Of a stretch of DNA of 49,062 bases, positions 21 to 46,088 are shown in pieces. The notes below the pieces were generated by a model. That model made no database searches and had not been told where the DNA came from. It saw only the letters and a list, made by a program, of their open reading frames with translations. Position 1 is the stretch's first letter; every line of letters begins with the position of its first letter. The DNA lies in NCBI GenBank assembly GCA_041550235.1, contig JBFEPE010000005.1:1-49062 (forward strand), written 5' to 3'. Position numbers and translations under genes: made by a program. Source of the DNA: Minisyncoccia bacterium. GTDB lineage: Bacteria; Patescibacteriota; Minisyncoccia; UBA6257; JAAZHW01.

Positions 21-224
21 AAAAACTCGTTTTGCCTCTATTTGAAAATCGGCAAAACTCAAACATTTGAATATATAGATCATCGCTCCCCATTCCTTAA
101 TTTGTTTCTATTTACTCTCTAGATATTCGAAATTTTGATTTCCTTTGGAGTTGTTAATATTACTTGCCCTTCCGAAATCTTGACTTTTTTTAAATATATG
201 CCATTGTTTATTATAGGAGGTATT

Positions 225-512
225 ATGAAAGTCAAATCTGAAAAAAAAGAAGAATACGAAAATGGGTGGATTTGCCGAATTAAATTTTCATCAAGCATCA
301 ATAAAATTCAAGATAGCATAAACGAATTAATTGATGATCTTGAGAGTGTGGGATATCGGATATTAGAAATCAAAATAGGATTCACTAAATCAAGGGGTGA
401 GAATAAAGATTTATTTATAGGCGTTGATGAAAAATTTTTCATCATCCAACAACTATTTTTTCATTTAGAAAGAGGAAATAAAGAAAAAAAAGGAAATTGG
501 CTTATTAAATAA
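225..512 (+). CDS. Orphan hypothetical protein (95 aa)
   Basis: ATG at 225 preceded by GGAGG (216-220) and TTGACT (180-185); followed by a hairpin and T-tract. Confidence 0.7.
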   Translation: MKVKSEKKEEYENGWICRIKFSSSINKIQDSINELIDDLESVGYRILEIKIGFTKSRGENKDLFIGVDEKFFIIQQLFFHLERGNKEKKGNWLIK

Positions 513-544
513 AATATTTGCCACCCATCATCCCACCAATCATC

Positions 545-591
545 TCGCCATCATCACCAATCTAAAAAGGTGGTGGTGGCGAATTTTTTTT
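545..591 (+). terminator. Intrinsic terminator
   Basis: TCGCCATCATCACC...GGTGGTGGTGGCGA followed by a T-run. Confidence 0.7.
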
Positions 592-815
592 AATTCAAAA
601 TCAAAGAAAGCAAATAATGAATTATTATAATATACCCAAAAAATAAATTATAAATTTTCTATAAATATATCATCAATTCCTCATCAATCCTTTCAGTGTC
701 ATTTTATATGATTTAACTAATACCAAAACCCACCACAAAACTTGACAAATTTTTTGTTTGTGTCAAAATGGAGGGGTTGTTAAATTAAAAATTAAATAAA
801 GATAGAGGAGGAAAA

Positions 816-1184
816 ATGAAAATTGATCATCCTGCAAGAATTGCCATTACCTCAATTATTTTTTCACTCAATGATGGTCCCAATTGCCTACACTGCATGA
901 GCCATAAAGGAGTTGCTGAAAAAATTAATCATGCATTAAACTCAAGATTAATGGGGCTATTGTCAGAAATTGAATTTGATAGATTGGGCAAACTACTGGC
1001 AATCAGAGATAAAGAAACATTTTTTATCCGCGATAGATCAAAAGATGATATAGAGGAAGAGCTCAAAAAGCATTCTGAGTATTTTGAAAATGAGGCATTC
1101 TTCTATTGCCGAGAAATTAAACTGCATAGACTTAACAATTGCATCAGTTTTACAGATCTTCAAGAAATTTTAGACCTTGTTTAA
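816..1184 (+). CDS. Orphan hypothetical protein (122 aa)
   Basis: TTGACA at 742-747, GGAGG at 807-811, terminator at 1204-1240. Confidence 0.75.
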   Translation: MKIDHPARIAITSIIFSLNDGPNCLHCMSHKGVAEKINHALNSRLMGLLSEIEFDRLGKLLAIRDKETFFIRDRSKDDIEEELKKHSEYFENEAFFYCREIKLHRLNNCISFTDLQEILDLV

Positions 1185-1203
1185 TTTAAAAATAGGCAAT
1201 GGT

Positions 1204-1240
1204 GAGCCGAGGAGAAATTTCTCCCGGCTCCTTTTTTATT
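1204..1240 (+). terminator. Intrinsic terminator
   Basis: GAGCCG...CGGCTC followed by CTTTTTTATT. Confidence 0.7.
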
Positions 1241-1291
1241 TCCAAAAAAACAAAAAAAGATAATGAAATAAAAACAATCACTCAGATAAAA

Positions 1292-3022: not shown

Positions 3023-3198
3023 ATTTTTGATTTATAAAAATCCCCGACTAAATTATCGGGGCTTTAAATCCTCTCAAATCATTTCTCTCTTTATATATTA
3101 ATTCTATATCAAAATATATTAAAAGACAATAAATGTGTTTAATAATAAAAAGAATCCCCTTAATTTATACTCGCGGGATTCTTAACGAGTTTTTTATT

Positions 3199-3537
3199 TT
3201 AAATCATATTTGGAGCATAGTTTTCTAGATCATAGAAACTGCCACCCCAAAAAACCTTCTTAAAGGAGGGCACCGTGATTGATAACAAAATCATCACGAT
3301 ACCTGTGAGTATAAGGCTAAGAGAATTCAATGCGAAGAACAGCCCCACCTTATTTCCATCAACAACTAAATTGAATAATGTGGCCGATCTAACTATCAGC
3401 AAACTGCCATTACAAAAAAGCATATCATAAGCCAAAAAGCCAGAAAAAAAGGTAAAAACAATAAGGCAAAGTCTTGTAAAAATTTTCCTTATTTTTTCAT
3501 TCTTGGTCCTCTCTCTACTAATTTCATTTGTTATCAT
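3199..3537 (-). CDS. Orphan membrane protein (about 2 TM helices)
   Basis: Hydrophobic segments; TTGACA-N16-TATAAT (3620-3593) and AGGAGG SD upstream. Confidence 0.7.
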   Translation of the reverse strand: MITNEISRERTKNEKIRKIFTRLCLIVFTFFSGFLAYDMLFCNGSLLIVRSATLFNLVVDGNKVGLFFALNSLSLILTGIVMILLSITVPSFKKVFWGGSFYDLENYAPNMI

Positions 3538-3692
3538 GATAAACCTCCTATTTTTTAATTTTACGACTCACACAGTGGTGAATTCTGCTCTCATTATATC
3601 ACAAATAAATGATTTGTCAATAGCAAAAAAATGGCTTATTTAAGCCATTTAGAATAGGTCTAATTTTTAGCAAACATGTTTTTCACATTTTT

Positions 3693-3763
3693 TGTCATTC
3701 CCGCGAAGGCGGGAATCTAAAAAATGAGAGAAACATGAGACTCCTGCCTTCGCAGGGGTGACA
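3693..3763. repeat. REPIN/dRS3-like paired palindrome element
   Basis: GTCATTCCCGCGAAGGCGGGAATC-spacer-GACTCCTGCCTTCGCAGGGGTGAC; inverted second copy at 25767-25853. Confidence 0.8.
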
Positions 3764-3806
3764 ATGAAACAATGAAGAGAGATTTCTATATAAGGGCTTA
3801 CAAACA

Positions 3807-3841
3807 ATCAAAACCCCCCGCCGAAGGCGGGGGGTTTTGAT
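3807..3841. terminator. Perfect GC-rich hairpin, probable tuf-rpsJ terminator
   Basis: ATCAAAACCCCCCGCC-GAA-GGCGGGGGGTTTTGAT. Confidence 0.7.
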
Positions 3842-3936
3842 AATGGAAAACAACAATCCAAAGAATCACAGCAATATCTCCAAAAAATCACAGCAATATC
3901 AATTAAGATAACGTCATTTAATACTTAATATCTATC

Positions 3937-4257
3937 CTACATCTTAATCTCAATATCCACACCAGCAGGAAGATTTAGATTCATCAATGCATCAACAACT
4001 TTCTGATTAGGATCCAATATATCAATTAACCTCTTATGAGCACGAAGCTCAAACTGGTCTCTTGAATCCTTATGAACAAAGGTTGCTCTATTGACAGTAT
4101 ATTTCTTAATCTCTGTTGGTAAAGGAATTGGTCCAACAATTTTAGAAACAAATCTTGAAGCAGTATCAACTATCTGCCTACAAGAATTATCCAAAACCTT
4201 ATGGTCATAAGACTTTATCTTGATTCTAATTTTTGACTTTTCTTTGGTAGTAGCCAT
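3937..4257 (-). CDS. rpsJ: 30S ribosomal protein S10
   Basis: [35 protein letters not shown] motifs. Confidence 0.98.
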
Positions 4258-4273
4258 AAATTTTTAACTAAAA

Positions 4274-5473: not shown

Positions 5474-5786
5474 TTTTCTTTTTTTGATTAAAGTCGCTAT
5501 AATCCCGCTCTCCTTCAATCAAAACATTAATAATTAATAAGACGACTATTTATATTTGACAACTCAATTATTTAGTTATGAGATAATTGATAATCATATC
5601 ATCTTCTCCCAACTTAAATTAAGTATAATCCCTAAATCACGAAATAAAGGAGATATCTAAAAATAGATTATTTTGTAATTCAAAGGTATAAGTATCTTAA
5701 TTAAAATATTATCATTGTCAATATCCTATATATTCTAACCGATTATTATAAAAAAACAATACCAGCAATTTGCTTTGTAAGAGACC

Positions 5787-5820
5787 ATACACCCCCGCCC
5801 GCAAGAGGGCGGGGGTGTAT
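5787..5820. repeat. GC-rich stand-alone hairpin
   Basis: ATACACCCCCGCCC...GGGCGGGGGTGTAT between divergent genes, no U-tail. Confidence 0.65.
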
Positions 5821-5879
5821 TTTGATTTGCTTTTAATTGGCTTATAAATTAAAATATAATTGTCGTAAATAAATAATAA

Positions 5880-5973: not shown

Positions 5974-5981
5974 AGAAAAAT

Positions 5982-6752: not shown

Positions 6753-6773
6753 CACTTGCTTAATCATAATATT

Positions 6774-9283: not shown

Positions 9284-9346
9284 TGCTATTTTATCACACC
9301 CCCAATACCTAAACTTGACTAATTTATTTGATTATGATAATCTAAT
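9284..9346. promoter_or_regulatory. Bidirectional promoter module duplicated at 13222-13284
   Basis: 26-bp exact match AAACTTGACTAATTTATTTGATTATG plus TATCACACCC, gapless at offset 3938. Confidence 0.7.
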
Positions 9347-9403
9347 GTTAGGTTTGGGGGAACAAATACCCCGATGATACAAACAAAAATAGGAGGTGTT
9401 ATT

Positions 9404-10900
9404 ATGACCAATAAAGAGGCATTGAAAAAATTTCTTGAAGCAGTTAATAAGGACAATTGTTTTGAGGCGAAAGAACTATCATTAAAAATACCAGTTAATA
9501 ATCTCGATTGTGAAGTTTTGATTGGGTTCCTAGAATCGGATAACCCAATAATACGCGATATGGTGAAAGAACTTCTTTCAAAAATACCAGTTAATAATCT
9601 CGATTGTGAAGTTTTGATTGGGTTCCTAGAATCGGACAACCTAATAATCTGCGATATGATGAGAGAACTTCTCCTAATCCATTTCCCTGAAAAACTGAAT
9701 ATTGAAACCTTAATCAGTTTTATAGAATCAAACGATTCGAATATTCGCGATAAGGCAAGTGGGCTTCTGTTAAAAATTCCGTCTAAAGAACTGAATCCTG
9801 AAACCTTAATCAGTTTTCTAAAATCAGACAATGCAAGAATCTGCGATATGATGAGAGAACTTCTTTCAAAAATACCAGTTAATAATCTTGATTGTGAGGT
9901 TTTGATTGGATTCCTAGAATCGGATAATTCAGGAATTTATGTTATGGCGAGACATCTCATTCATAAAGTAGTTAAAAAACTTAATTTTGAAACTTTGATT
10001 AATCATCTTAAATCAAGTAATCAAAGAGTTTGCAACAATATCAGAGTACTTCTTTCAAACCATTTTCCTGAAAAACTTGGTCTTGAAACCTTAATCAGTT
10101 TTCTAGAAGAATCAAGCGATTCAGATGTTCTTGATAAGGCAGTGGAAATTATTAAAAAGATCCCGCCTAAAAAACTTGATCCTGAGAAATTAATCAATTT
10201 TCTAAAATCGAGTTATTTAATAGTTTTCGGCATAACAGAGGAACTCCTTTTAAAAGTCCCGCCTAAAAAACTTGATCCTGAGAAATTAATCAATTTTATA
10301 AAGTTAAACGATTCAAATGTTTGTGATGTAGTTAAGGAGATTCTTTTAAACCATTTCCCTGAAAAACTGGATATTGAAACCTTAATCAGTTTTCTAAAAT
10401 CAGATGATTCGGATGTTCGCGATAAAACTAGGTGTATTCTTTTAAATAATTTCCCTGAAAAACTGGATGTTGAAACTTTAATCAGTTTTCTAGAGTCAAG
10501 CAATTCGGGCATTCAGGATAAGGCAAGAGGGCTTCTCTTAAAGATTCCATCTGAAAAACTGGATGTTGAAACTTTAATCAGTTTTCTAAAATCAGATAAT
10601 GCAAGAATCTGCGATATGATGAGAGAACTTCTCCTAATCCATTTTCCTGAAAAACTGGATATTGAAACTTTAATCAGTTTTCTAGAGTCAAGCAATTCGG
10701 GTATTCAAGATAAGGCAAGAAGACTTCTCTTAAAGATTCCGTCTAAAAAACTGAATCCTGAAACCTTAATCAGTTTTCTAAAATCAGAAAATTCAAAAGT
10801 TCGCGATACGGTGAAAGAACTTTTGAAAAAAATTAAAAAAAAGACTGATTTAGAAAAAATGTTTAAGAAATGCTTCCCCTATACATATACAAAAAATTGA
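9404..10900 (+). CDS. Tandem-repeat alpha-solenoid (HEAT-like) protein, 14 units of about 32 aa
   Basis: KIP/HFPxKLxxETLISFLxSxxxxIxDxxxxLL units with 96-bp DNA periodicity; AGGAGG SD before ATG 9404. Confidence 0.85.
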   Translation: MTNKEALKKFLEAVNKDNCFEAKELSLKIPVNNLDCEVLIGFLESDNPIIRDMVKELLSKIPVNNLDCEVLIGFLESDNLIICDMMRELLLIHFPEKLNIETLISFIESNDSNIRDKASGLLLKIPSKELNPETLISFLKSDNARICDMMRELLSKIPVNNLDCEVLIGFLESDNSGIYVMARHLIHKVVKKLNFETLINHLKSSNQRVCNNIRVLLSNHFPEKLGLETLISFLEESSDSDVLDKAVEIIKKIPPKKLDPEKLINFLKSSYLIVFGITEELLLKVPPKKLDPEKLINFIKLNDSNVCDVVKEILLNHFPEKLDIETLISFLKSDDSDVRDKTRCILLNNFPEKLDVETLISFLESSNSGIQDKARGLLLKIPSEKLDVETLISFLKSDNARICDMMRELLLIHFPEKLDIETLISFLESSNSGIQDKARRLLLKIPSKKLNPETLISFLKSENSKVRDTVKELLKKIKKKTDLEKMFKKCFPYTYTKN

Positions 10901-10914
10901 AATCAAACAACGAC

Positions 10915-10955
10915 GGGCAAAGGTTGTCACAAAAACCTTTGCCCATTTTTTATTT
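10915..10955 (+). terminator. Intrinsic terminator
   Basis: GGGCAAAGG...CCTTTGCCC followed by ATTTTTTTATT. Confidence 0.75.
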
Positions 10956-13496: not shown

Positions 13497-13587
13497 TTGT
13501 TTTTGGTTGTTGAAAAATCAATAAAAAAACAGCCCCACCACTTAGATAATGGGTGGGGGGGTTGAATAAATGATGGCCAATGATCTA

Positions 13588-13815
13588 TTAATTATTTTTT
13601 GATTTGAGTTTAAAATCCAAACCAATAAAAAAAATTGAAATACCAATAATTATCGTTATTAAAACAATTACCGAATCTTTGGTTTGACTAATTTTGTTTA
13701 AAAAATCATATAATTCCTTTATTATAAAATGGTAACTAATAACCAATAATCCAATAATCATCAAAAACCATCCTAAAAATCCATTGATTTTGTTTTGTTT
13801 TTCGCTTTTTTTCAT
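13588..13815 (-). CDS. Small orphan 2-TM membrane protein
   Basis: Two hydrophobic helices; TTGACT promoter and AGGAGG SD; terminator-like hairpin at 13523-13561. Confidence 0.7.
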   Translation of the reverse strand: MKKSEKQNKINGFLGWFLMIIGLLVISYHFIIKELYDFLNKISQTKDSVIVLITIIIGISIFFIGLDFKLKSKNN

Positions 13816-13912
13816 GATATCCTCCTATAATAAATAATAACACAAGATTAAAAAAAGTCAATACTTACTTTTTTCTTGGGACGGAGTATAATTATAAAAT
13901 ATATAAATTATT

Positions 13913-16626: not shown

Positions 16627-16692
16627 TTTTTCCTCCACTCACCCCTTGACTTTTTATTTGTTTTGTAGTAGTTTAATAGCGGAGGTGTTAAA

Positions 16693-17058
16693 ATGAAAAA
16701 CAACTTTTTTAAATGGTTGATTTATTTAATATGTGTGGTAATTTTATCATTCATAATAACAGAAATTGAACAATGTCAATTTGATAATTCAACAAACAAA
16801 GTGGGAGAAGAAGTAGGGATACAGGAACAAGAAAAGGAATGGGAGGGGGTTGATGATAAAGAACTAAACAACACTAATAACATCAATAAAACTAATAACA
16901 CCAAAGAAGATTTTTTTTATAATTTTCTTTGCAAGCAAGAAAAAGAATTGAAAGATAGTAGTGATATGTGGATAATTATAATCATTGTTTTAGTTGTAAT
17001 TTTAATTTCATTATTTATAATTTTAATCTATTTCATCAGAAATAGAGATAAAAATTAA
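16693..17058 (+). CDS. Orphan membrane protein with N- and C-terminal TM segments
   Basis: TTGACT at 16646, GGAGG at 16681, terminator at 17073-17129. Confidence 0.7.
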   Translation: MKNNFFKWLIYLICVVILSFIITEIEQCQFDNSTNKVGEEVGIQEQEKEWEGVDDKELNNTNNINKTNNTKEDFFYNFLCKQEKELKDSSDMWIIIIIVLVVILISLFIILIYFIRNRDKN

Positions 17059-17072
17059 TAAATTAATTAAAA

Positions 17073-17129
17073 TGGTTTGTATCCAAAGAGATAATCTCTC
17101 TTGTAATGGATACAAACCACTTTTTTATT
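17073..17129. terminator. Long hairpin terminator
   Basis: TGGTTTGTATCCA...TGGATACAAACCA followed by CTTTTTTATT. Confidence 0.75.
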
Positions 17130-27280: not shown

Positions 27281-27391
27281 CACAATCACCTCAATATTAA
27301 GTATAAACAATAAGAGCAATAATCAAAATCTCTCTCCTTCCTAATTTGACAAATTAAATAATATTTGGCAATATGATGGTGGAGGTAAATT

Positions 27392-27775
27392 ATGAAAAAA
27401 CTAAAAATTTTAATCGTAGATGACGATGAGGTATGTATTGGTCTTTTAAAATCAATACTTGAAAATCATTTCCAATTAGATTGTAGTATCGAGACTGCCG
27501 AAAATGGAGAAGTTGGATTAGAAAGTGTGCAAAATGCAATAGAAAATAATAATCCATTTGATATAACAATAACTGATGACAGAATGCCAAAGACGTCGGG
27601 AACAGAGATGGTAGAAAAAATAAGAATGATTGATAAGAACGTTAAAATAATAATGGTAACAGCGACAATAAATGATGTAAACGTTGGTTTAAAGGAAAAA
27701 ATAGATTGCTTGCTAATAAAGCCATTCTTTGCAGATGAGATGATTAAGAAAATAGAAGAACTAATAGCTAGATAA
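27392..27775 (+). CDS. Single-domain response regulator (receiver)
   Basis: ILIVDDD, DITITD..MP, VTA, KPF; TTGACA and GGAGG upstream. Confidence 0.9.
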   Translation: MKKLKILIVDDDEVCIGLLKSILENHFQLDCSIETAENGEVGLESVQNAIENNNPFDITITDDRMPKTSGTEMVEKIRMIDKNVKIIMVTATINDVNVGLKEKIDCLLIKPFFADEMIKKIEELIAR

Positions 27776-27967: not shown

Positions 27968-29035
27968 CTAATCAGCCAAGGCATACTTCCTATTATCCAA
28001 CCTCTTAAACAATCTCTTGTCTTGGAGGTTAATAAGAATTGTTGCATCTTTCACATTTCTTTGCTTTTGAACAATATCCACTAACTGCTCAAAAGTTTTA
28101 CTTCCCTTATTTAATGCCTTCACCAATAATTCCTTAACTGTTCCCTCTTCAAAGCCCCAATTCTTTAAGGCATAAACACCCCTTCCTACCAAAACAAACT
28201 CCGGCATTTTAATTAACTCATTATGAGTGGTGGATGCTTGCGCTTTTTTATTATCCTCAAAATTAACCTCGTTTATTGCATCGGCAATTTTAGAAAAGTG
28301 CATTGGCTTTCCTTTTTTTTCCAAAACCAAATATGCCTTATCGCCAACATTTGTTGGGGATATCTTAGACCAATTACTCAAACCAAATTCATAAAATGGA
28401 TTAAAAGCAAAATCTTTTGAAACATCTAAGTAAGAAGTAACCGCCTGCTCATTCTTTATTGAAAGAGTTTTCATTATTTTTCTCAATAATTCTTGATACT
28501 CATCCAACTTAAGAGGCCTGTTCGCCTTCTTCAATTCCTTATGGCACATCTTGTGAACAGAGTCCATCTTTCTTACCGAGTCCTTATCGCTATACCATGC
28601 AGAATGTCTATTTGGCTTCTCAAAAAGATAATTGAAATATGGTGCTAAAGACAAAACAAAAACAAGATGGCTTTTAACTGTCTCTTTGTCAGCATCCTTT
28701 TTCAAGGACTGAATAGGATCATCAACAAATGAATGGGTTGCCTCTTCTAAAAGCAATGACTCTCTTCTTAAACCACCCAAAACTTCTATTTGACCCTTCA
28801 ATTTGTTTACAAGATCATTTAGATCTTTGATATTTTTTCTTAAAACATCTAATGCTCCCGCCTCAATTTGTCTTATTCTTTCTCGGGTAACTCCATTTTG
28901 ACGACCGATAGCCTCCAGTGTGAGAGGCTTATCACCTGTCAATCCAAATCTTTTCTCAACAACATTCTTCTGTTTCTCTGACAGAATATCGATGAAATCA
29001 TTTAATGTTCTAATTAAGCTTTCTTGGTTAATCAT
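27968..29035 (-). CDS. Sigma70 region-4 HTH plus HARE-HTH (RNAP delta-like) domain protein
   Basis: TLEAIG...VTRERIRQIE; KPMHFSKIA...HNELIK...FVLVGRGVYAL. Confidence 0.8.
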   Translation of the reverse strand: MINQESLIRTLNDFIDILSEKQKNVVEKRFGLTGDKPLTLEAIGRQNGVTRERIRQIEAGALDVLRKNIKDLNDLVNKLKGQIEVLGGLRRESLLLEEATHSFVDDPIQSLKKDADKETVKSHLVFVLSLAPYFNYLFEKPNRHSAWYSDKDSVRKMDSVHKMCHKELKKANRPLKLDEYQELLRKIMKTLSIKNEQAVTSYLDVSKDFAFNPFYEFGLSNWSKISPTNVGDKAYLVLEKKGKPMHFSKIADAINEVNFEDNKKAQASTTHNELIKMPEFVLVGRGVYALKNWGFEEGTVKELLVKALNKGSKTFEQLVDIVQKQRNVKDATILINLQDKRLFKRLDNRKYALAD

Positions 29036-29116: not shown

Positions 29117-29398
29117 TTATGAGACCCTTGCCCTCTTTGGATTCCGAAGGAGTTTTTTGATGTTGGCTAAATCCTCTCCCCCCTTTAATATACCAGCCCT
29201 TCTTAATTGTTTTATCTGCTCTCGCATTTTTAATTTATAAACGGCTGATTTCTTTAATTGATTTTTGCTTGGCTTTTTCTTTAAAAATCTTTGAGACTTA
29301 GATTCCTTTAATACCCCGCTTTGGATAACGGACCTATTAAATCTATAGATGAATGATTGTAGTGGCTCATCTTTTTTTCTTTTTACCTGTATTGGCAT
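29117..29398 (-). CDS. rpsU: 30S ribosomal protein S21
   Basis: VKRKKDE...RF.R.V..SGVLKE....F..KPS; next to a HIT gene; start trimmed past the repeat. Confidence 0.8.
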   Translation of the reverse strand: MPIQVKRKKDEPLQSFIYRFNRSVIQSGVLKESKSQRFLKKKPSKNQLKKSAVYKLKMREQIKQLRRAGILKGGEDLANIKKLLRNPKRARVS

Positions 29399-32577: not shown

Positions 32578-32639
32578 TTTATAAATAAAAAAATCCCTCT
32601 GCTTTTATGATTAAATTAAATAATGCTATAATTTAAATA

Positions 32640-35246
32640 ATGAAAGAGACAAAAAAATTGGTTATTATTGATGCTCATGCTCTAATCCACCGCTCCTTCC
32701 ATGCCCTACCACCATTCACATCACCCGAAGGCAAGCCAATTGGAGCAGTTTTTGGCACGGCTAGAATTTTAATAAAATTGATTAAAGATTTAAATCCGGA
32801 CTATATGGCCGCCTGCTTTGATTTGGCAGACCCAACATTTCGTCATCAAGAATTTGAAGATTATAAGGGAAAAAGAGAGAAAGCACATGACGATTTAATT
32901 GCTCAATTTGAACCAGCAAGAGAATTATTTGAGACAATGGGAATACCCCAATTTGAAAAACCGGGATTTGAGGCCGATGATTTAATTGGCTTTTTAGTGA
33001 AAAAATTTAAAAATGTCACTGATAAAATAATAATTGCTACAGGCGACTTAGACACACTTCAATTAGTTGATAATGATAAAGTTATTGTTTATACCCCCAA
33101 GAAGGGGCTTCAAGAAACAATGTTCTATGATGAAAAAGCAGTATTTGAAAGATATGAACTTTTGCCATCCCAAATGAATGACTTTAAGGGATTGAAGGGC
33201 GATCCATCCGACAATATTCCCGGAGTGATTGGAATTGGCGAAAAAGGAGCAATCAAAATTTTGAAAAAATTTAATAATTTAGAAAATTTATATAAAGAAA
33301 TAGAATCGCCGAATTTTAAAACAGATAAAATCATCACAGATAAAATAAAGGAAAAACTTTTGAGTCAGAAAGAGCAAGCAATGTTTAGTAAATATTTAGC
33401 GACAATAGAAACAAATATTGACATTGAGGCAAATTTGGAAGATTTAAAATTTGAATTTCCATCAAAAGAAAAAATATTACCCCAATTAGAAAAATGGGGA
33501 TTTAATAGTCTTATAAAGCAATTAGAAAATAGTTTTTTTAACTCAGAAAGCAATAAAGAATCATCTGCTCAACAAAAAGAAGTTGAAGAATTTATTATTT
33601 CAGAAAAAATTGACGAATTATTAAATTTAATATCAGAGGAAAAAAATTTAGTTATTTATTTTGATGACGAAAAAAAAGAGATTAGCATTCTTTTGAAAAA
33701 TAAAGATAAGAGATTTTTGATTTCTGCCAATAAAGATAATCTAAAAAAATTAGAGCCAATTTTATCAGATAAAGAAATATCGAAGGTTGGATATGACTTG
33801 AAGGAATTGATTAAATATCTTTTGAATTTTGATATAAAAATCAGCGGGATAAAAAATGATATCAAAATTTCTCAATGGCTAATAGGGTCTGATGTTAAAA
33901 AATATTCTTTGGAAGAAATTGCTCAAAAAAATGGAGTATCAATTTCTTCTTTTGTTCCCGATGGAATAAACAAAATTCATCAAAGGCAATTATCTAAAAT
34001 AAAAGATATGGGATTGGAAAATGTTTTGGGGAATATTGAAATTCCCTTGATTTCTGTTCTTTCAAGAATGGAAAAGGACGGCATTAGCATTGATGAGGAA
34101 TATTTTAAAAAGTTAAGCGAAGAAATAACTGATGAAATAATTCAATTAGAAAGGGATATTTTTAAATTATCTGGAAAAGAATTTAATATCTCATCGCCGA
34201 AGCAATTATCAGAAATTCTTTTTGAGCATCTAAAAATATCATCTAAGGGAATAAAGAAAACACCCGGCGGAGCAATTTCCACCCGAGAAAGTGAGTTGGA
34301 AAAAATGGAATCATCCCATCCTGTTATAAGGCATATTTTAAAATTTCGGGAATTATCTAAGCTGAAAAATACATACATTGATTCATTGCCCAATAATATT
34401 GATCCTAAAACAGGCCGAATACACACTACATTTAATCAGGTTGGCACTGCCACGGGAAGATTATCGTCCGAGGAACCAAATCTTCAAAACTTACCTGCCC
34501 GAAGTGATTGGGGAAAAAGAATACGGTCAGGATTTGTTTCCGGTAAAAATAAATTATTTTTAAGTTTAGATTATTCTCAAATTGAACTTCGTGTCGCCGC
34601 CTCCCTATCAAATGATAAGAAAATGATTGAGGCATTTCGAAATGGGCAGGACATTCATACCATCACGGCTTCCGAAATAAATAATGTTGAGGTGGATAAG
34701 GTAACAAAAAAAATGAGACGAGATGCAAAAACATTGAATTTTGGAATTCTTTATGGAATGGGAGCAAGAGCATTTTCTCAAACTGCTGGGGTTTCAGTTT
34801 CCGAGGCAAAAAAATTTATAGAAGAGTATTTTAAAAATTTTGAGGCGATAAAGGTTTGGCAAGAGGAGATATTAAATTTTGCTAGAAAAAATGGATTTGT
34901 GGAGACTATTTCAGGTAGAAAGAGGTGGTTGGATGACATCACTTCGTCTAATCAAAGAGTTAGGGCAATGGCGGAAAGAATGGCAATAAATTTTCCCGCT
35001 CAGGGGCTATCGGCCGATATTATCAAAACGGCAATGATTGAGATTAGTGATTTTATTATTGATAATAATTTATCTAATAATATATCTATGCTTCTTCAAG
35101 TTCATGATGAGTTGGTCTTTGAGGTTGATGAGGGTATTATTGATAAGGCGGAAAATGATTTAAAAAAAATAATGGAATCCGCCTTTTCTCTCGAGAATGT
35201 CTCTCTCAAGGCGGACTCCAAATTTGGTCAAAATTTAGGATTTTAG
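32640..35246 (+). CDS. polA: DNA polymerase I
   Basis: 5'-3' exonuclease (EADD, GDPSDNIPGV) and polymerase A motifs DYSQIELR, K..NFGILYG, QVHDE. Confidence 0.98.
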   Translation: MKETKKLVIIDAHALIHRSFHALPPFTSPEGKPIGAVFGTARILIKLIKDLNPDYMAACFDLADPTFRHQEFEDYKGKREKAHDDLIAQFEPARELFETMGIPQFEKPGFEADDLIGFLVKKFKNVTDKIIIATGDLDTLQLVDNDKVIVYTPKKGLQETMFYDEKAVFERYELLPSQMNDFKGLKGDPSDNIPGVIGIGEKGAIKILKKFNNLENLYKEIESPNFKTDKIITDKIKEKLLSQKEQAMFSKYLATIETNIDIEANLEDLKFEFPSKEKILPQLEKWGFNSLIKQLENSFFNSESNKESSAQQKEVEEFIISEKIDELLNLISEEKNLVIYFDDEKKEISILLKNKDKRFLISANKDNLKKLEPILSDKEISKVGYDLKELIKYLLNFDIKISGIKNDIKISQWLIGSDVKKYSLEEIAQKNGVSISSFVPDGINKIHQRQLSKIKDMGLENVLGNIEIPLISVLSRMEKDGISIDEEYFKKLSEEITDEIIQLERDIFKLSGKEFNISSPKQLSEILFEHLKISSKGIKKTPGGAISTRESELEKMESSHPVIRHILKFRELSKLKNTYIDSLPNNIDPKTGRIHTTFNQVGTATGRLSSEEPNLQNLPARSDWGKRIRSGFVSGKNKLFLSLDYSQIELRVAASLSNDKKMIEAFRNGQDIHTITASEINNVEVDKVTKKMRRDAKTLNFGILYGMGARAFSQTAGVSVSEAKKFIEEYFKNFEAIKVWQEEILNFARKNGFVETISGRKRWLDDITSSNQRVRAMAERMAINFPAQGLSADIIKTAMIEISDFIIDNNLSNNISMLLQVHDELVFEVDEGIIDKAENDLKKIMESAFSLENVSLKADSKFGQNLGF

Positions 35247-39291: not shown

Positions 39292-40482
39292 ATGAAATAT
39301 TTCACAAAAAAAGATTTAAAAAATAAAAAAATAATAATGCGGGTTGATTTTAATGTCAAAATCAATGACGAAGGAATAATAATGAATGATTATAAGATAA
39401 GAAAAGTGCTTTTTACAATAAAGACAATATTATCATCCAATATCAAGAGTTTGATTTTAATAAGCCATATGGGCAGGCCAAAGGGAAGAAGAGTGAAAGA
39501 ATTGAGTCTGACACCCCTAATCCCTTATTTGGAGAGTAAATTAAATATAAAAATAAATTTTGTTTCTGATTTAGAAAAGAAAAATATTGAAAAAATAAAA
39601 TCAGCAAACGAGGGAGAAGTTTTCTTATTAGAGAATATAAGATTTTGGTCAGAGGAAGAAAAAAATGATAAATTATTTTCAAAAAAATTATCCCAGATGG
39701 GTAATGTTTTTGTAAATGATGCTTTTTCAGTGAGTCATCGAGAGCATTCTTCAATTGTAGGTATTACAAATTTCCTGCCAAGTTTTGGTGGAATTTTAAT
39801 GAAGAAGGAAATTGAGAATTTAAAATTAGCAAAGGAGAGAGATAATAGGCCATTTTCTTTAGTATTAGGCGGTAAAAAAATATCTGATAAATTGCCCTTG
39901 GTAAAATTTTTTAGAAAGAAAATTGATTTTTTATTATTAGGTGGGGCAGTGGCGAATACTATTTTAAAAACAATGGATTTTGAGGTCGGCAAGTCATTGA
40001 TTGATGAATCTGTTGATATGAAAATGGTGGGTAAATATTTTGGCAATAAAAAGAATGGTCAAATGAATTTAATGATGCCCGGTGACTTATTAGTTGCCTC
40101 TTCAAAGAATGATAACTTAGGCATAGAAAGGCATTACACCAAAGTATTGAAAGATGATATTATTTTAGATATCGGTCTTCATACAAGAATTTGTTTTGAG
40201 AATATACTTAATCAATCAAAAACAATTATTTGGAATGGCCCAATGGGTTATTGTGAGAATGAGAATTTCACTCAGGGGACTGAAGTAGTTGCGAGAGCTA
40301 TTGCCAATTCGCCTGCTTTTAGTGTAGTTGGCGGGGGAGACACCATTTCAGCAATAGAGAAGTTTGGATTATTGGATAAGTTTGATTTTGTTTCTACTGG
40401 TGGCGGAGCAATGCTTGAGTTTCTTTCAGGCAATAAGTTGCCCGGCCTCGTTGCTTTGGAGAAGAATTCGGAAGAGAAATAG
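39292..40482 (+). CDS. pgk: Phosphoglycerate kinase
   Basis: RVDFNV, SHMGRP, LENIRF, WNGPMG, GGGDT, STGGGA. Confidence 0.97.
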   Translation: MKYFTKKDLKNKKIIMRVDFNVKINDEGIIMNDYKIRKVLFTIKTILSSNIKSLILISHMGRPKGRRVKELSLTPLIPYLESKLNIKINFVSDLEKKNIEKIKSANEGEVFLLENIRFWSEEEKNDKLFSKKLSQMGNVFVNDAFSVSHREHSSIVGITNFLPSFGGILMKKEIENLKLAKERDNRPFSLVLGGKKISDKLPLVKFFRKKIDFLLLGGAVANTILKTMDFEVGKSLIDESVDMKMVGKYFGNKKNGQMNLMMPGDLLVASSKNDNLGIERHYTKVLKDDIILDIGLHTRICFENILNQSKTIIWNGPMGYCENENFTQGTEVVARAIANSPAFSVVGGGDTISAIEKFGLLDKFDFVSTGGGAMLEFLSGNKLPGLVALEKNSEEK

Positions 40483-40579
40483 AAAGTTTGTTAATTTTTT
40501 AGATTCATTTAATTATCAATAGAGTTTTCTATTGACTTATGAGATTGATTAAGCGAGAATATATGTGGAGGTGATTAAG

Positions 40580-41005
40580 ATGAGCAATAAAGATGGCAAG
40601 AAAGATAAGAAAGTTGATGTTAATAAAAATGGTGGCAAAGGCATTAAGGGTGCTGGTGTTAAAAAAGATGGCGAGAAGCCGGGCGGATTAACTCCGGCTA
40701 ATATAAAAAAAATAAAAAGAGAGTTGGATAAAGCAATAAAAGAATCAAGAAATAAACCATTTGTAATAAAGGGGGGGGGAATTGAAGAATGGGTGGGGGA
40801 AATTGAGGACACTGGTTTTAATTGTTCTTATTGTGAAAAAGAACACGGAACTAAAGAAAGAATAGTAAGAGAGGAAGAGAAAAAAGATGTGAAAATAAAT
40901 CTTTATGGAGGAGAACCAAAGTCTGAAATAATCCTTGGTCACCCGCACTGTATAAGGTGCGGCACAGTTTTTCATTTAAAAACATTGGAAAGAAGGAAAA
41001 AATAA
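40580..41005 (+). CDS. Orphan protein with Lys/Gly-rich N-terminus and CxxC...CxxC zinc ribbon
   Basis: CSYC and CIRC; GGAGGTGAT SD, TTGACT at 40532, terminator at 41031-41064. Confidence 0.7.
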   Translation: MSNKDGKKDKKVDVNKNGGKGIKGAGVKKDGEKPGGLTPANIKKIKRELDKAIKESRNKPFVIKGGGIEEWVGEIEDTGFNCSYCEKEHGTKERIVREEEKKDVKINLYGGEPKSEIILGHPHCIRCGTVFHLKTLERRKK

Positions 41006-41106
41006 GGATAATAAATCATGAAGGGATTTTGGGGGAAGGAGTAATCCTTCCCCCCTATTTTTTTAAGAAACAAAAACTTGACTTATGCTATTATTATATT
41101 AAACTA

Positions 41107-41133
41107 TTAGCACTCTATCTAATCGAGTGCTAA
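41107..41133. promoter_or_regulatory. CIRCE operator (HrcA binding site)
   Basis: Perfect TTAGCACTC-N9-GAGTGCTAA just downstream of TTGACT-N16-TAAACT. Confidence 0.95.
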
Positions 41134-41197
41134 TAGTTATAAATAGCAAAAGATTAGATTATCGGTCGACTTTAATTATAAAAAATAAATAAAAAAT

Positions 41198-41485
41198 ATG
41201 GAAATTAAACCATTATCAAATAATGTCGTAATTGAGCCGATTGAAGAGGCAACAACAACGGCATCAGGCATCGTCTTGCCTGACACAGCAGAAAAAGACA
41301 AGCCCCAAAAAGGAAAAATAGTTTCTGTTGGTCCCGGAAAAATGAGCGATGGACAAAGAATTCCTATGGAAATAAAGGTTGGGGATAAGGTAATTTTTGA
41401 AAGATATAGTCCTTCAAAAATAAAGATTAATGGCGATGAATATTTGCTAATTTCAGAAAGCGATATTCTTGCGATAATTGATTAG
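41198..41485 (+). CDS. groES: Co-chaperonin GroES
   Basis: IKPL, TASGIVLPDTA, VGPGK, ESDILA. Confidence 0.98.
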   Translation: MEIKPLSNNVVIEPIEEATTTASGIVLPDTAEKDKPQKGKIVSVGPGKMSDGQRIPMEIKVGDKVIFERYSPSKIKINGDEYLLISESDILAIID

Positions 41486-41617
41486 TTATTTTGTTTATAA
41501 GATTAGGTTGGGTAATAATAATTAAAATAAAAAAATCCCACCTCGCTCCGAAGGAGCGAGGGGCGAGATATTAATCAATTGCTAATTATCTCTCTAAGTC
41601 GAAAAAATATTAATTAA

Positions 41618-43309
<1,692 letters not shown>

Positions 43310-43319
43310 TTACCTTCTT

Positions 43320-43350
43320 TAAACTCCTGATTTCATTCAGGAGTTTTTGT
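43320..43350 (+). terminator. groESL terminator
   Basis: AAACTCCTGA-TTTCAT-TCAGGAGTTTTT. Confidence 0.75.
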
Positions 43351-43461
43351 TTGTTTTGAAATAATTTGTTTTGAAATGATAAATGGAAATAAAAAGGAAG
43401 CACAGCGATTTTTTGTTATCGTCGCCATGCCCCATAAAATAAAAAATATATAATGCCTTCG

Positions 43462-43725
43462 TCAATAACCCTCTCCATGGAAATAATCATTATTTAAAAA
43501 TTTTGCAAATTTAGTTATTTTTAAGTGGGCAATATTTAATTTGGAGTGTTTTTTTATTTTCCCCAATAAATTATCTGCCCCCTCTTTTGATAAGAAAATT
43601 TTGATTTCTTCAATGTTGGTTATATTCTTAATAAATAGCACAAAAGAAATTACTTTTCCTTTATATCCAGCAAAAACTAATTTTGTTTTTGTGTCTATAA
43701 TAATAAATTCTGTTTTTCCTGCCAT
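43462..43725 (-). CDS. Orphan hypothetical protein (87 aa)
   Basis: AGGAGG SD before ATG 43725; promoter shares an 18-bp core with its neighbours. Confidence 0.65.
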   Translation of the reverse strand: MAGKTEFIIIDTKTKLVFAGYKGKVISFVLFIKNITNIEEIKIFLSKEGADNLLGKIKKHSKLNIAHLKITKFAKFLNNDYFHGEGY

Positions 43726-43936
43726 AATCCCTCCTGATATTTTATTTTTCAATATTAAAAATCTTTTGACTGCGAATTATCTTATAATACCAACCAAGAC
43801 TTGTCAATATTTTAGTCTTATCCAATACAAGATAAGTGCGATATCTGGGGGATGTTTGATGTGCTTAATCAAGATAATCCTCGCAATGAATTGTGGCGAT
43901 TTATTGCATGGAAATTTAGTGCGGGGGAATTTGGTA

Positions 43937-44002
43937 ATTAGAAATAAAAAAATACTCCCCAACAAGACATTTCGCAATATCTTGTTGGGGGCTTTATGCT
44001 GA
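43937..44002 (-). terminator. Cassette terminator module, copy 1
   Basis: Near-identical to 45169-45233; long hairpin followed on the minus strand by TTTTTTTATT. Confidence 0.8.
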
Positions 44003-44003
44003 T

Positions 44004-44654
44004 TTACTTTTTCTCTTCTTCTTTTTTTTTCAAAGACATCCAAGTTTTTTCGGCATTACAATTGATGCCCTTCAAAGATAAGTATCTTTTAAATACTCTT
44101 TTTCTAACGATTGCCTTATTGTCATGATGATGATAGTCCGGGAGAATTTCAATGCGGAGAAAAACATCTTCTATTTTTTCATCATCAACCCCCATGTCTT
44201 CTATTGAGGATGTAGGGATAAGATCATAAATTCTTCTTGCGAATATCGGATCAAATATACTCGTGCTTTCTAAAGACATGCGGGACAAATCTTTTATTTT
44301 TAATTTGCCGAGAGCATCATCCTTACAAAGTAGATGGTATCCTTTATCTAATAAGGCATCATGTATGTCTCCTTTCTCAGATTTTCCGAATCTGTAATGC
44401 CCGCATTTTTTTTCTTGGAAAACATCAACAAAAGTATTCCAATCTTGAATATCTTCAATTTCCTTTAAGATATTCTTCTTGATTTTTTCCTCAGCCTCTG
44501 TCCATGCGAGGAAAAACATAAAAAGATTTTCAATCTTATTGTTTTCTGCTAAAAAAGATTCCATCGAGTTTTCGATGCCCGTTCTTAGAGAGTATAGATC
44601 TTTGGATGACAAATTTTCTGTCATTTTTCTTAAATCTTGTTCAAATACTTTCAT
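44004..44654 (-). CDS. Orphan hypothetical protein (216 aa)
   Basis: AGGAGGTTTAAA-ATG; flanked by the shared promoter and terminator modules. Confidence 0.75.
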   Translation of the reverse strand: MKVFEQDLRKMTENLSSKDLYSLRTGIENSMESFLAENNKIENLFMFFLAWTEAEEKIKKNILKEIEDIQDWNTFVDVFQEKKCGHYRFGKSEKGDIHDALLDKGYHLLCKDDALGKLKIKDLSRMSLESTSIFDPIFARRIYDLIPTSSIEDMGVDDEKIEDVFLRIEILPDYHHHDNKAIVRKRVFKRYLSLKGINCNAEKTWMSLKKKEEEKK

Positions 44655-44760
44655 TTTAAACCTCCTTTTTTCTTATTTTAATGATTTTTTAAATTTTTAA
44701 ATTTGGATAATTCCGATTTTTACATTATCACGATAATCAAGACTTGTCAATATTTATGGT

Positions 44761-44790
44761 TTATAAATAAATATCTTTGCGGTTGCCTAT
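44761..44790 (-). pseudogene. Possible C-terminal relic of a RelE-like toxin (IGNRKDIYL*)
   Basis: Reads I-G-N-R-K-D-I-Y-L-stop overlapping the stop of the antitoxin-like ORF. Confidence 0.4.
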
Positions 44791-45002
44791 TTTGATAGTC
44801 TTAATAATTTCAAAAAATCTTTGCTATTAGTAAAGGCATAATCTCCCTTTTGTTTTGATGCCTTTGCCACATCTCTAATGAATTTAGGATTATATTCTCC
44901 TTCACTATCTTTTTCTATCGCCATACTTAATAATAGAGACCTTAAATTAACAACCTCTTTTGTTAATATATTTAATTTTTTTTCCACTGCTTTTATAGAC
45001 AT
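44787..45002 (-). CDS. Small putative antitoxin-like protein
   Basis: 71 aa; D.EGEY.P.F motif and F....DFLK.L tail resembling small type II antitoxins; no SD. Confidence 0.5.
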   Translation of the reverse strand: MSIKAVEKKLNILTKEVVNLRSLLLSMAIEKDSEGEYNPKFIRDVAKASKQKGDYAFTNSKDFLKLLRLSK

Positions 45003-45027
45003 AATTTTTTTAATAATAGGTGTCGCT

Positions 45028-45111
45028 ATCCCCCGCCTCGCCCTTGGCGAGGCGGGGGATTTAAAATAATATCATTACTATCCCTACCCCGCCTTCGGCG
45101 GGGTGGGGATA
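45028..45111. repeat. Two GC-rich hairpins
   Basis: ATCCCCCGCCTCGCC-CTT-GGCGAGGCGGGGGAT and ATCCCTACCCCGCC-TTC-GGCGGGGTGGGGAT. Confidence 0.7.
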
Positions 45112-45168
45112 CCTTGTAGTTTAGCTTATTGAGTGTATTATAACCTAATCAAAAAATATCTCAAAGTG

Positions 45169-45233
45169 ATTAGAAATAAAAAAATACTCCCCAGCAGGAC
45201 ACTTCGCAATGTCTTGTTGGGGGGTTTTGCTGA
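45169..45233 (-). terminator. Cassette terminator module, copy 2
   Basis: Near-identical to 43937-44002. Confidence 0.8.
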
Positions 45234-45249
45234 ATAATCATTTTGACTT

Positions 45250-46005
45250 TCATTTTACAAGAAAGTGAAGAAAGTGATTGATTATTTTGAAATATGGCTT
45301 CAGGGGCATTATTCTTTTCTTGATACCAATCTCTTTCTTGCCCTCTTTTGTTTGGAGGTATTTGAGTCTTTCGCTCGTTTCTTTTTTCTGTCTTTCAACA
45401 AGAGAAAGAGAAATACTCGCTATTTTAGTTGTATTAAATCTATCCGGAAATCTTTCGCTGTTATGAATTCTCCTACCATCAAGATAAAACCATTCATAAT
45501 CTCGAATATTTATGGCATCAAAAAATAATAAAACTCCTTGATTTCCTTCAGGGTCAATGTAGAAAAAACCATTCTCTTCATGAAACTTTTTTTCATCTCC
45601 TCTACAATATCTACAAGTATGAATCTTGGGGCAATTCTGTTCTTCCCCTATCTTTCTCAACTCATTGGTTATTTCTTCTACATCCTTTCTTGGAATGTCA
45701 TTATTTGACTGATGGTGTTCAAAATTCGACAAGAGGGCGATTGAGAAATTCCTCTTCTCTCTTTCTAATAAAAGAGTTTTTAAAAGATTCAAGCCGTTAA
45801 AAGAACTTGGTTTTTGCCCTTTATAAAAGGGGATTTCCAAGTCTATAATCACAATATCCGGATGTGATTCCTTAAATTTTTTCAAACATCCAGAGCCATT
45901 TGAGGAATAAATGACATTGGCATTAGTTAAACTCCTTAATTCCCATTTTGTATGACTTCTTTGGATAAGGGAATCGTCGCATATCAAAATTGTTACATCT
46001 TTCAT
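45250..46005 (-). CDS. Atypical response-regulator receiver protein with a large insertion or unknown C-terminal region
   Basis: ILICDDS, PDIVIIDLEIP, LLS; a KP motif appears only near the C-terminus. Confidence 0.7.
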   Translation of the reverse strand: MKDVTILICDDSLIQRSHTKWELRSLTNANVIYSSNGSGCLKKFKESHPDIVIIDLEIPFYKGQKPSSFNGLNLLKTLLLEREKRNFSIALLSNFEHHQSNNDIPRKDVEEITNELRKIGEEQNCPKIHTCRYCRGDEKKFHEENGFFYIDPEGNQGVLLFFDAINIRDYEWFYLDGRRIHNSERFPDRFNTTKIASISLSLVERQKKETSERLKYLQTKEGKKEIGIKKRIMPLKPYFKIINHFLHFLVK

Positions 46006-46088
46006 TTTAAACCTCCTATTTTTTATTTTTAAATTTGGATAATTTCCGCCCTTATTATATCACGATAATCAAGACTTGTCAATATTTA
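46006..46088 (-). promoter_or_regulatory. Cassette promoter/5'UTR module shared with 44655-44756 and 43795-43812
   Basis: 30-bp exact match 46059-46088 = 44727-44756 containing TTGACA; shared AATTATCCAAATTTAAAAA and GGAGGTTTAAAATGAA. Confidence 0.8.

Follow-up and report, generated by a model that had tools for sequence, protein, structure and literature searches.

The stretch analysed here, referred to throughout as the window, comprises 49,062 nucleotides (nt) of contig JBFEPE010000005.1 from a Minisyncoccia bacterium (assembly GCA_041550235.1). It carries eleven non-core genes, each of which forms a self-contained, monocistronic unit placed singly between core genes, as a preliminary description made from the sequence alone had held. 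That description went on to propose that the eleven belong to an exchangeable pool of cassettes with a translation mode of its own, possibly swapped by recombination between short conserved promoter and terminator ends. Following this proposal across the whole genome and its relatives, we find good support for a pool of cassettes that is exchanged by homologous recombination, and we find that the genome's 16S ribosomal RNA (rRNA) lacks the CCUCC with which GGAGG would pair as a canonical Shine-Dalgarno (SD) sequence. The eleven cassettes are laid out as follows (ORF, open reading frame).

Positions 180-589, plus strand: cassette 1; -35 box TTGACT at 180-185, GGAGG at 216-220, ORF 225-512 (95 amino acids, no Pfam family), hairpin plus T-run to about 589.
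Positions 742-1239, plus strand: cassette 2; -35 box at 742-747, GGAGG at 807-811, ORF 816-1184 (122 amino acids, orphan), terminator to about 1239.
Positions 3145-3620, minus strand: cassette 3; -35 box at 3615-3620, GGAGG at 3544-3548, ORF 3199-3537 (112 amino acids, orphan), terminator at 3145-3198.
Positions 9315-10951, plus strand: cassette 4; -35 box at 9315-9320, GGAGG at 9392-9396, ORF 9404-10900 (498 amino acids, HEAT repeats), terminator to about 10951.
Positions 13511-13861, minus strand: cassette 5; -35 box at 13856-13861, GGAGG at 13821-13825, ORF 13588-13815 (75 amino acids, hydrophobic), terminator at 13511-13587.
Positions 16646-17126, plus strand: cassette 6, in the dnaN-lysS slot; -35 box at 16646-16651, GGAGG at 16681-16685, ORF 16693-17058 (121 amino acids), long hairpin terminator to about 17126.
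Positions 27346-27775, plus strand: cassette 7; -35 box at 27346-27351, GGAGG at 27381-27385, ORF 27392-27775 (127 amino acids, stand-alone receiver domain), no terminator by our criterion.
Positions 40532-41063, plus strand: cassette 8, in the pgk-groES slot; -35 box at 40532-40537, GGAGG at 40567-40571, ORF 40580-41005 (141 amino acids, Lys/Gly-rich N-terminus), terminator to about 41063.
Positions 43390-43807, minus strand: cassette 9; -35 box at 43802-43807, GGAGG at 43730-43734, ORF 43462-43725 (87 amino acids, orphan), terminator at 43390-43461.
Positions 43947-44750, minus strand: cassette 10; -35 box at 44745-44750, GGAGG at 44661-44665, ORF 44004-44654 (216 amino acids), terminator at 43947-44003.
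Positions 45179-46082, minus strand: cassette 11; -35 box at 46077-46082, GGAGG at 46012-46016, ORF 45250-46005 (251 amino acids, weak receiver domain), terminator at 45179-45249.

Inspection of the eleven starts places GGAGG 4-8 nt before the ATG in 11/11 and TTGAC(A/T) 45-96 nt upstream in 11/11, in agreement with the first reading. The terminator ascribed to nearly all units is present for ten of the eleven genes, which have within 110 nt a T-run and a hairpin with a folding energy of -11 to -25 kcal/mol (the criterion being -7 kcal/mol or lower plus at least four T within that distance), and is missing for the gene starting at 27392. The conserved genes with which the cassettes had been compared were also rightly described as SD-less: at 4-10 nt from their starts there is no GGAGG, GGAG or GAGG, and the GGAGG of lysS, about 19 nt upstream, is too distant. 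Family matches identify these core genes as DnaA, DnaN, EF-Tu, LysS, PolA, Pgk, GroES, GroEL and ClpB (NCBIfam) and uS10 (Pfam); trpS was not identified.

A class of GGAGG-led genes throughout the genome

The window is contig C5 of a 759,907-base genome in 41 contigs, which is 97% complete with 0.27% contamination and a G+C content (GC) of 33%. Genetic code table 11 fits, few extra long ORFs appearing when TGA or TAG is read as sense. Genes were called with a simple dicodon-based caller of our own rather than a published gene finder, giving 766 genes, and class II was defined as those with a perfect GGAGG 4-9 nt before the start. This class holds 107 of the 766 genes (~14%; modal distance 5-6 nt), as against 0.76% of internal ATGs. 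Four-letter partial matches precede 37 genes, which is the chance rate of 5.3% seen at internal ATGs; the presence of GGAGG is all-or-none, and the graded spectrum of partial matches expected of canonical SD genes does not appear. A subset of genes with unambiguous starts (231 or 240 genes), smaller as a sample, controls for bias in start choice, and in it perfect GGAGG precedes 31 of 231 genes.

The GGAGG motif travels with a promoter and a terminator. TTGAC lies within 150 nt upstream of 93/107 class II genes versus 92/659 others, the latter near chance (odds ratio 41, p 1e-51), and the same coupling is seen among unambiguous starts (n=240), where TTGAC accompanies 29/32 GGAGG genes versus 29/208 others (odds ratio 60, p 5e-18). 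A hairpin plus T-run terminator follows 87/105 class II genes versus 182/643 others, and TTTTTTAT is found downstream of 53/107 versus 66/659. Some 86% of the genes, the core included, are without a -35 box and without GGAGG, and T-run terminators are rare among them.

The class II promoter logo reads TTGACA, 17 nt, TGnTAnnnT, and transcription is predicted to begin at a G. Two spacings can be told apart: in a short class of 28 genes 45-53 nt separate the -35 box from the ATG, such that the predicted transcript starts at GGAGG itself, and in a long class of 65 genes the box lies further upstream, the leader often having a 5' stem-loop plus an A-rich run. Long leaders have in common that the stem-loop stands just past the predicted start and that a run of TTAAAAA type precedes GGAGG, as in the following example.

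Positions 44655-44745 and 46006-46075, minus strand: long-class leaders of cassettes 10 and 11.

In 34% of class II promoters the 30 nt ahead of the -35 box contain a run rich in C (CC.CC or CCCC), compared with 12% of all TTGAC sites.

Positions 16630-16645: C-rich stretch upstream of cassette 6.

A separate sigma factor for class II is possible; the genome has two full sigma-70 family genes (contigs C3 and C24), but the promoter matches the primary-sigma consensus. The window also encodes a 355-amino-acid protein (27968-29035, minus strand) that matches sigma-70 region 4 only and adjoins the receiver-domain cassette 7.

Class II proteins are short (median 128 versus 224 amino acids for others). 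Their GC equals that of the core (0.32-0.34), with a lower dicodon score (0.23-0.27 versus 0.32-0.37 per codon), and 34/91 class II genes run antiparallel to both neighbours, versus 71/599 others. They are scattered over all large contigs, between core genes, with a weak enrichment at contig ends (16/76 terminal genes, p 0.095). We found no bias towards surface or secreted proteins, membrane-segment content being 28% in class II and 27% in others.

Cassettes turn over within conserved slots

Comparison with G001, a genome of the same genus, shows core genes at 90-99% DNA identity, and all 33 of the other window genes have a match there, 31 of them at amino acid identities of at least 85%. Among the 11 cassette genes, the G001 loci pulled by DNA similarity hold one good ortholog, one gene cut by a contig end and two homologs of 35-40% amino acid identity; for seven there is nothing. 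The good ortholog, the only one for a window cassette, is that of cassette 2 (88% amino acid identity). Cassette 4 has a partial ortholog with a ratio of nonsynonymous to synonymous substitution rates (dN/dS) of 0.70; cassette 8 has a 35% homolog at the same slot; cassette 7 has only a 40% homolog, in a different slot; and cassette 5 is flanked by sequence that is 94-95% identical, around an ORF that is far more diverged. When five cassette proteins were searched against the whole genomes of 30 relatives, three (that of cassette 1 among them) found no match, one gave weak receiver-domain hits and one, from cassette 9, found a 34% match at the same slot of G001.

The same picture is obtained in the reverse direction, where tblastn finds no counterpart in the whole of this genome for 15 of 21 TTGAC-type cassette ORFs from the G001 loci. 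In 20 complete G001 cassettes the upstream 130 nt match this genome in 20/20 and the downstream 110 nt in 16/20, versus 4/20 for the ORF DNA, and in 12/20 both flanks are conserved and the ORF is not.

Individual slots bear this out. Where this genome has cassette 3 with its promoter, GGAGG, ORF and terminator (3135-3689, 555 nt), G001 has some 45 nt instead. Between dnaN and lysS a single cassette is present here and three are present in G001, with unrelated ORFs, and the G001 linker there is the same as here: a 60-nt hairpin terminator, a C-rich stretch, and the promoter and leader up to the ATG. In other genera of the family dnaN is followed instead by a conserved gene of 183-184 amino acids (8/9 loci readable), indicating that a cassette slot between dnaN and lysS is peculiar to this genus. 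At a further G001 locus, L104, a cassette of about 750 nt has been inserted next to a divergent gene for a 1057-amino-acid protein, 3 nt away from its start (compare C16:11745-11753 of this genome), and the ATGTCAA with which that gene begins supplies, read on the other strand, the cassette's -35 box TTGACA.

These comparisons uphold the exchangeable nature of the pool, which varies between close relatives and sets non-homologous ORFs in homologous promoter-leader and terminator modules. The preliminary description had named two outcomes that would speak against it, namely that SD use is unrelated to gene conservation and that the ORFs are stably inherited in the same slots across relatives; GGAGG is instead strongly tied to lack of conservation, and cassette ORFs change in their slots.

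Most cassette proteins are orphans

A Pfam family scores over its curated cut-off in 4 of 20 random class II proteins versus 15 of 20 length-matched others. The four are HD-CE, methyltransferase, thymidylate kinase and amidohydrolase families, and within the window three of eleven cassette proteins have a Pfam family (HEAT repeats in one, receiver domains in two). The label of non-core or orphan genes therefore fits most of the class and does not fit these members. The 216-amino-acid protein of cassette 10 (44004-44654) found only itself among 5.8e9 proteins in a word-based search and among 1.84e9 representatives with phmmer, and the protein encoded at 816-1184 finds only itself and its 88% ortholog.

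The dN/dS of gene 816 is 0.20, with a core median near 0.06; together with the domains found in some members, this value indicates that class II genes are real. The genome's only clear thymidylate kinase gene is itself in class II, and the class II signals must consequently function in this cell. AlphaFold2 models of two orphans reached a mean predicted local distance difference test (pLDDT) score of 44 and 33, and the best score in a comparison with a protein atlas, 0.78, was below the useful range. A phage or defence origin was tried and rejected: there was no phage DNA match, and searches against PHROGs and PADLOC (plasmids were not searched) gave receiver-domain hits only, none of the 8 non-receiver proteins among the 10 window cassette proteins scanned matching a PHROG family.

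Shared modules and probable recombination junctions

Of the 107 class II upstream regions, 67 resemble another upstream region in the genome, and of 60 class II gene pairs whose upstream DNA is alike, 59 encode non-homologous proteins. The likeness extends over linkers and leaders of 60-130 nt, which are 81-99% identical around unrelated ORFs. Within the window, cassettes 9, 10 and 11 have a common promoter, and cassettes 10 and 11 also have a homologous leader and terminator around proteins that are unrelated (BLASTP E = 4.5). The 3' hairpins, followed by T-runs, fall into several unrelated families.

We aligned contigs of four other metagenome runs from three studies (one run coming from the presumed source's study) to positions 40000-46200, using joints only, as parts of this interval are without contig cover in runs X2-X5. 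A 943-nt skip removes cassette 10 in two runs (43794>44738 and 43799>44743), and its junction falls in a stretch of 13-18 letters that the promoters of cassettes 9 and 10 share; cassette 10 is missing in G001 as well. A second skip, of 1332 nt (44703>46036), joins the leader of cassette 10 to that of cassette 11, with which it is homologous. In a third arrangement ORF 9 is replaced (43450>43723) by 259 other letters, between terminator and ATG; in G001, too, the conserved flanks of cassette 9 enclose a different ORF. The junctions lie in promoter and leader homology, not in the hairpins. Traces of this kind would be expected from homologous recombination between the standard modules. The suggestion of a swap at short promoter and terminator ends is thus borne out as far as the position of the junctions inside shared modules goes, and the events themselves are our reconstruction.

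The genome encodes ComEC, and three tyrosine recombinase genes lie on contigs other than that of the window (C1 and C3); there is no recombinase gene within the window.

GGAGG without CCUCC

The sole 16S gene, on contig C30, ends in GGAUCAUCUAAAGA, where the Rfam consensus has GGAUcACCUCCUUu. There is no CCUCC at its 3' end, and GGAGG is consequently no canonical SD sequence in this organism; nor does CCTCC occur in the whole 16S gene or in the 450 nt downstream. Because G001, of the same genus, has an identical 16S tail, the absence is not a binning error. CCTCC is likewise absent in 18 of 18 cleanly aligned relatives from the order (21 ends printed, three of them unjudgeable with the helix-45 region not shown) and in five further pattern-rich genomes (5/6 ends, the sixth alignment being off), 23 readable relatives in total. 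In the 16S trailer, no 23S gene is found in the 450 nt to the contig end, and a hairpin is followed by a TAGGTCGG-like motif that is also seen in the trailers of relatives. Passages of PMC9297842 describe loss of the anti-SD for a subgroup of Parcubacteria, and those on the loss contain nothing on residual GGAGG genes; we infer that the present genome belongs to that subgroup.

The claim that the cassettes have their own translation mode is accordingly not borne out in its original form, the 16S being without CCUCC, and stands as an open and interesting paradox. Among genes defined by their promoter, 107 in number, 67 match GGAGG at 5/5 positions, 10 at 4/5, 3 at 3/5 and 27 at fewer. The ratio of 67 perfect to 10 one-off matches makes GGAGG look selected, since neutral decay at 33% GC would give many one-offs. 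Diverged G001 homologs (35-63% amino acid identity) still carry the motif. Judged by these patterns, GGAGG looks to have been kept by selection, and its canonical spacing and its exclusivity with the A-rich start context of core genes point to a role at initiation.

Several candidate readers of the motif were tried and rejected. A relocated anti-SD finds no CCTCC anywhere in the 16S, where two conserved pyrimidine pentamers occur at internal positions only. A canonical 16S tail elsewhere in the genome is mimicked only by the reverse strands of GGAGG leaders or by coding DNA. Nothing convincing emerged for an adaptor RNA that would pair with both the 16S tail and GGAGG. CsrA, as a reader of GGA, was not found in this 97%-complete genome. 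Of 121 genomes of the order, 71 encode an RRM protein, but its occurrence does not follow the cassette pattern, and it is missing from the pattern-rich G005, G003, G009, G037, G084 and G086; the RRM_1 domain protein of this genome (C10:8331-8609, 92 amino acids) has a domain that is uncommon in bacteria.

Core genes start differently. Leaders of the 231 genes with unambiguous starts are A-rich and Kozak-like, with A at -3 at a frequency of 0.75, A at -2 at 0.69 and T at -1 at 0.66, and show no G enrichment near -10. This A-rich context and GGAGG are mutually exclusive. Among 427 operon-head genes TATAAT peaks before the ATG at -12 (27 genes) and -13 (13 genes), and TAnnnT falls at -14 to -11 in 130 of 435 genes versus 85 in a control window. 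The TATAAT peak has the signature of predicted leaderless transcripts, as at the start of polA; genes of that class are characterised by a -10 box ending some 6-7 nt ahead of the start codon and by having no 5' untranslated region.

Positions 32627-32642, plus strand: start of polA, a core example; TATAAT (32627-32632) 13 nt before the ATG, no GGAGG, leaderless-type.

Another 102 upstream regions cluster by GC-rich hairpin repeats, often in tandem, that end in an A-rich run just before the ATG. These leaders precede SD-less genes that include GreA and a bS21-like gene, 19 of them matching a strict pattern, and the repeat may be a standard leader, stabiliser or processing element of core genes.

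Window starts 5982 (plus strand) and 19162, 29398, 29793 and 37514 (minus strand): GC-rich hairpin repeat, present also on many other contigs.

A 93-amino-acid protein of the window (29117-29398, minus strand) has a weak Ribosomal_S21 match of 21.3 bits, under the cut-off of 27. In other bacteria bS21 contacts the anti-SD region.

The cassette pattern extends across the order. The string TTGAC, 22-52 nt, GGAGG, 4-9 nt, ATG occurs 47 times here versus once in the reversed control, the highest count of 121 sampled order genomes; it exceeds the reversed control in 104 of 120 order relatives (1001 versus 195 matches), and a few genomes have none. A direct count in fetched stretches finds such genes in G005, G009 and G027, and few or none in the parts read of G002, G007, G012, G019 and G024. 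Promoter-GGAGG units of G084, G122 and G034 have a recurrent AGTT...TT.AAA motif around the predicted transcription start.

A repeat beside cassette 1

One further feature of the window abuts a cassette.

Positions 1-184, strand not assigned: dispersed repeat of about 165 nt that abuts or runs into the -35 box of cassette 1.

The genome holds at least 12 copies of it at 96-100% identity, on contigs C2, C3, C4, C8, C10, C19, C21, C22, C31 and C34 as well. Several copies stand at contig ends, where the repeat breaks assemblies, and G001 has more than 25 matches.

Weighing the explanations

We consider it probable that this genome uses two expression grammars, and that the roughly 14% of its genes built as autonomous one-gene units carry a flexible pool that is exchanged through homologous modules. 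Each unit would consist of three standard parts: a near-consensus -35 promoter, a leader with perfect GGAGG, and a hairpin-T-run end, the transcript being predicted to start at GGAGG or 30-70 nt upstream of it. The promoter-leader and terminator modules, together with the flanking core genes, would act as homology arms for RecA-type recombination, probably preceded by DNA uptake, to which the presence of ComEC would be suited. Cassettes could in this manner be gained, lost and swapped without a dedicated integrase. GGAGG would mark the start codon of leadered mRNAs and would have a reader distinct from the canonical 16S tail. A fuller version of the proposal has GGAGG as an initiation signal independent of the 16S 3' tail that was kept after loss of the anti-SD, is read by a ribosomal or accessory component or else used to process leadered mRNAs, and is coupled to -35 promoters and T-run terminators as a set reserved for exchangeable genes, the standard ends doubling as recombination handles; we offer this version tentatively, as a possibility that is rather doubtful as a whole.

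Several points weigh against a two-grammar genome with an exchanged pool. A ribosome-binding role for GGAGG has no known reader. For as many as 40 of the 107 class II genes, no relative of the upstream region could be detected elsewhere in the genome, and the cassettes are not clustered (12 adjacent pairs versus 14.1 expected). No specific recombination site was found, so that the word system may overstate ordinary accessory-genome turnover. The contigs of other runs were aligned at a likeness of at least 85%, and their joints may reflect relatives or assembly at repeats. G001, the sole same-genus genome for comparison, is fragmented into about 140 contigs and often broken at these very repeats. 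Our caller's choice of start gave GGAGG a bonus, and class II membership, as perfect GGAGG, follows these calls. Promoters, transcript ends, terminators and translation, finally, are all predicted from sequence; no RNA run turned up among the data sets that contain positions 40000-46200.

On one alternative, which we judge unlikely, the cassettes are an ordinary accessory genome: class II genes are leadered, strongly expressed and non-essential, their signals converge on a consensus, turnover occurs by generic insertion and deletion, and recombination at modules is incidental. The dispersed arrangement of the cassettes, the lack of an integrase or att-like site beside those of the window, the 40 upstream regions without a detectable paralog and the shortness of the junction repeats (13-18 nt) would all be expected. 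Against this, similarity runs well past the consensus boxes into linkers and leaders of 60-130 nt that are 81-99% identical around unrelated ORFs, and ORFs are exchanged exactly between conserved flanks. The -35 box and GGAGG, moreover, hardly ever occur one without the other, and independent convergence would not predict this.

A second alternative takes the cassettes for recent foreign DNA from donors that use -35 boxes and SD sequences (bacteria, phages or plasmids), whose signals persist as unselected relics. Signals that are canonical for SD users and have no known reader here, variation of the genes between strains, and dicodon scores below those of the core are consistent with such an origin. 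Against this, GC equals that of the core, the one protein tested deeply has no homologs among 5.8e9 or 1.84e9 proteins, and phage searches recovered no DNA match and no PHROG or PADLOC family besides receiver-domain hits. The modules, moreover, are common within the genome and with its congener, the pattern spans an order whose readable 16S ends are all without CCUCC, and perfect and one-off GGAGG stand at 67:10 in spite of a GC of 33%. We regard recent foreign origin as improbable.

By analogy, the cassettes might also be made for another cell, and be expressed in the bacterial host of a putative symbiont after transfer of DNA or RNA, much as T-DNA genes carry the recipient's signals. In favour of this, the signals seem useless to an anti-SD-less ribosome and ideal for typical bacteria, and like many effectors the proteins change fast, differ from strain to strain and belong to no known family. 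The units are nevertheless scattered over all large contigs with no transferable block, the class includes enzymes of a housekeeping kind, among them the only clear thymidylate kinase, membrane segments are as frequent as in other genes (28% versus 27%), and no transfer mechanism is known; this reading strikes us as very improbable. Equally so is an artefact of gene or start calling, or a chimeric bin of two organisms, for which the rewarded GGAGG and the 41-contig assembly might be cited, given that the unbiased subset shows the same fraction (31/231) and the same coupling, that cassettes sit between core genes on the same contigs, that ORFs of 75-498 codons are rare by chance at 33% GC (by our own base-composition estimate), and that contamination is 0.27%.

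Relation to known systems and significance

Integron cassettes are promoterless, stand in an array next to attI and an integrase gene, and use attC for recombination. The units described here are like them in being a pool of single-ORF, often orphan, exchangeable units with a structured 3' element, and unlike them in carrying a promoter each, in their dispersed positions, in their terminator-like 3' hairpins and in junctions that fall in promoter and leader homology. With regard to translation, the nearest parallels are genomes of mixed leaderless and SD use and the SD-poor Bacteroidota with few strong-SD genes, in which the 16S keeps CCUCC. Passages of PMC10783764 partly echo such SD-poor genomes with a strong-SD minority. 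Here, too, most starts are A-rich or leaderless and a minority has a strong SD-like motif; in contrast to those genomes, CCUCC is gone in the order sampled.

The minimal mobile elements of Neisseria, as set out in passages of PMC3082526, are whole-gene cassettes between conserved flanks that are exchanged by homologous recombination in an organism that takes up DNA, and have no mobility genes of their own. Several slots of the present genome likewise hold, in different strains, different whole-gene cassettes between the same conserved flanks. They differ in that the arms here also comprise short promoter-leader and terminator modules of standard form, which are found again at many loci, and in that each cassette is a single ORF with full signals, in an expression grammar different from that of the core. 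Phage morons, as described in PMC3594210, are independent promoter-ORF-terminator units that lie between unrelated genes and spread horizontally. The cassettes resemble them in having an autonomous promoter, one ORF and a terminator (as predicted here), and depart from them in lying beside cellular core genes (DnaN, LysS, Pgk, GroES/EL and ClpB) rather than inside a prophage, and in the lack of a match to phage DNA or phage protein families. The cassettes thus work like Neisseria minimal mobile elements and look like morons, and they meet the definition of neither integron cassettes nor morons. In the passages covered of the literature on the anti-SD in the Candidate Phyla Radiation (CPR), Parcubacteria and Patescibacteria, on leaderless genes and on ribosome binding sites, GGAGG-led cassettes are not described; PMC6851277, PMC10582724, PMC12641178 and PMC10783764 have no bearing on them.

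If the proposed exchange holds, ultra-small and probably symbiotic bacteria would keep a large, fast-turning, strain-specific gene pool without integrases or transposons, with standard promoter, leader and terminator modules serving as homology arms. Gene finders that apply a single start model per genome would mis-call one of the two classes. A selected, canonically spaced GGAGG in a lineage without an anti-SD would bear on the roles that SD motifs have beyond pairing with the 16S, and, were GGAGG read independently of the 16S tail, it would give the flexible genes of these organisms a second, separate channel of gene expression.

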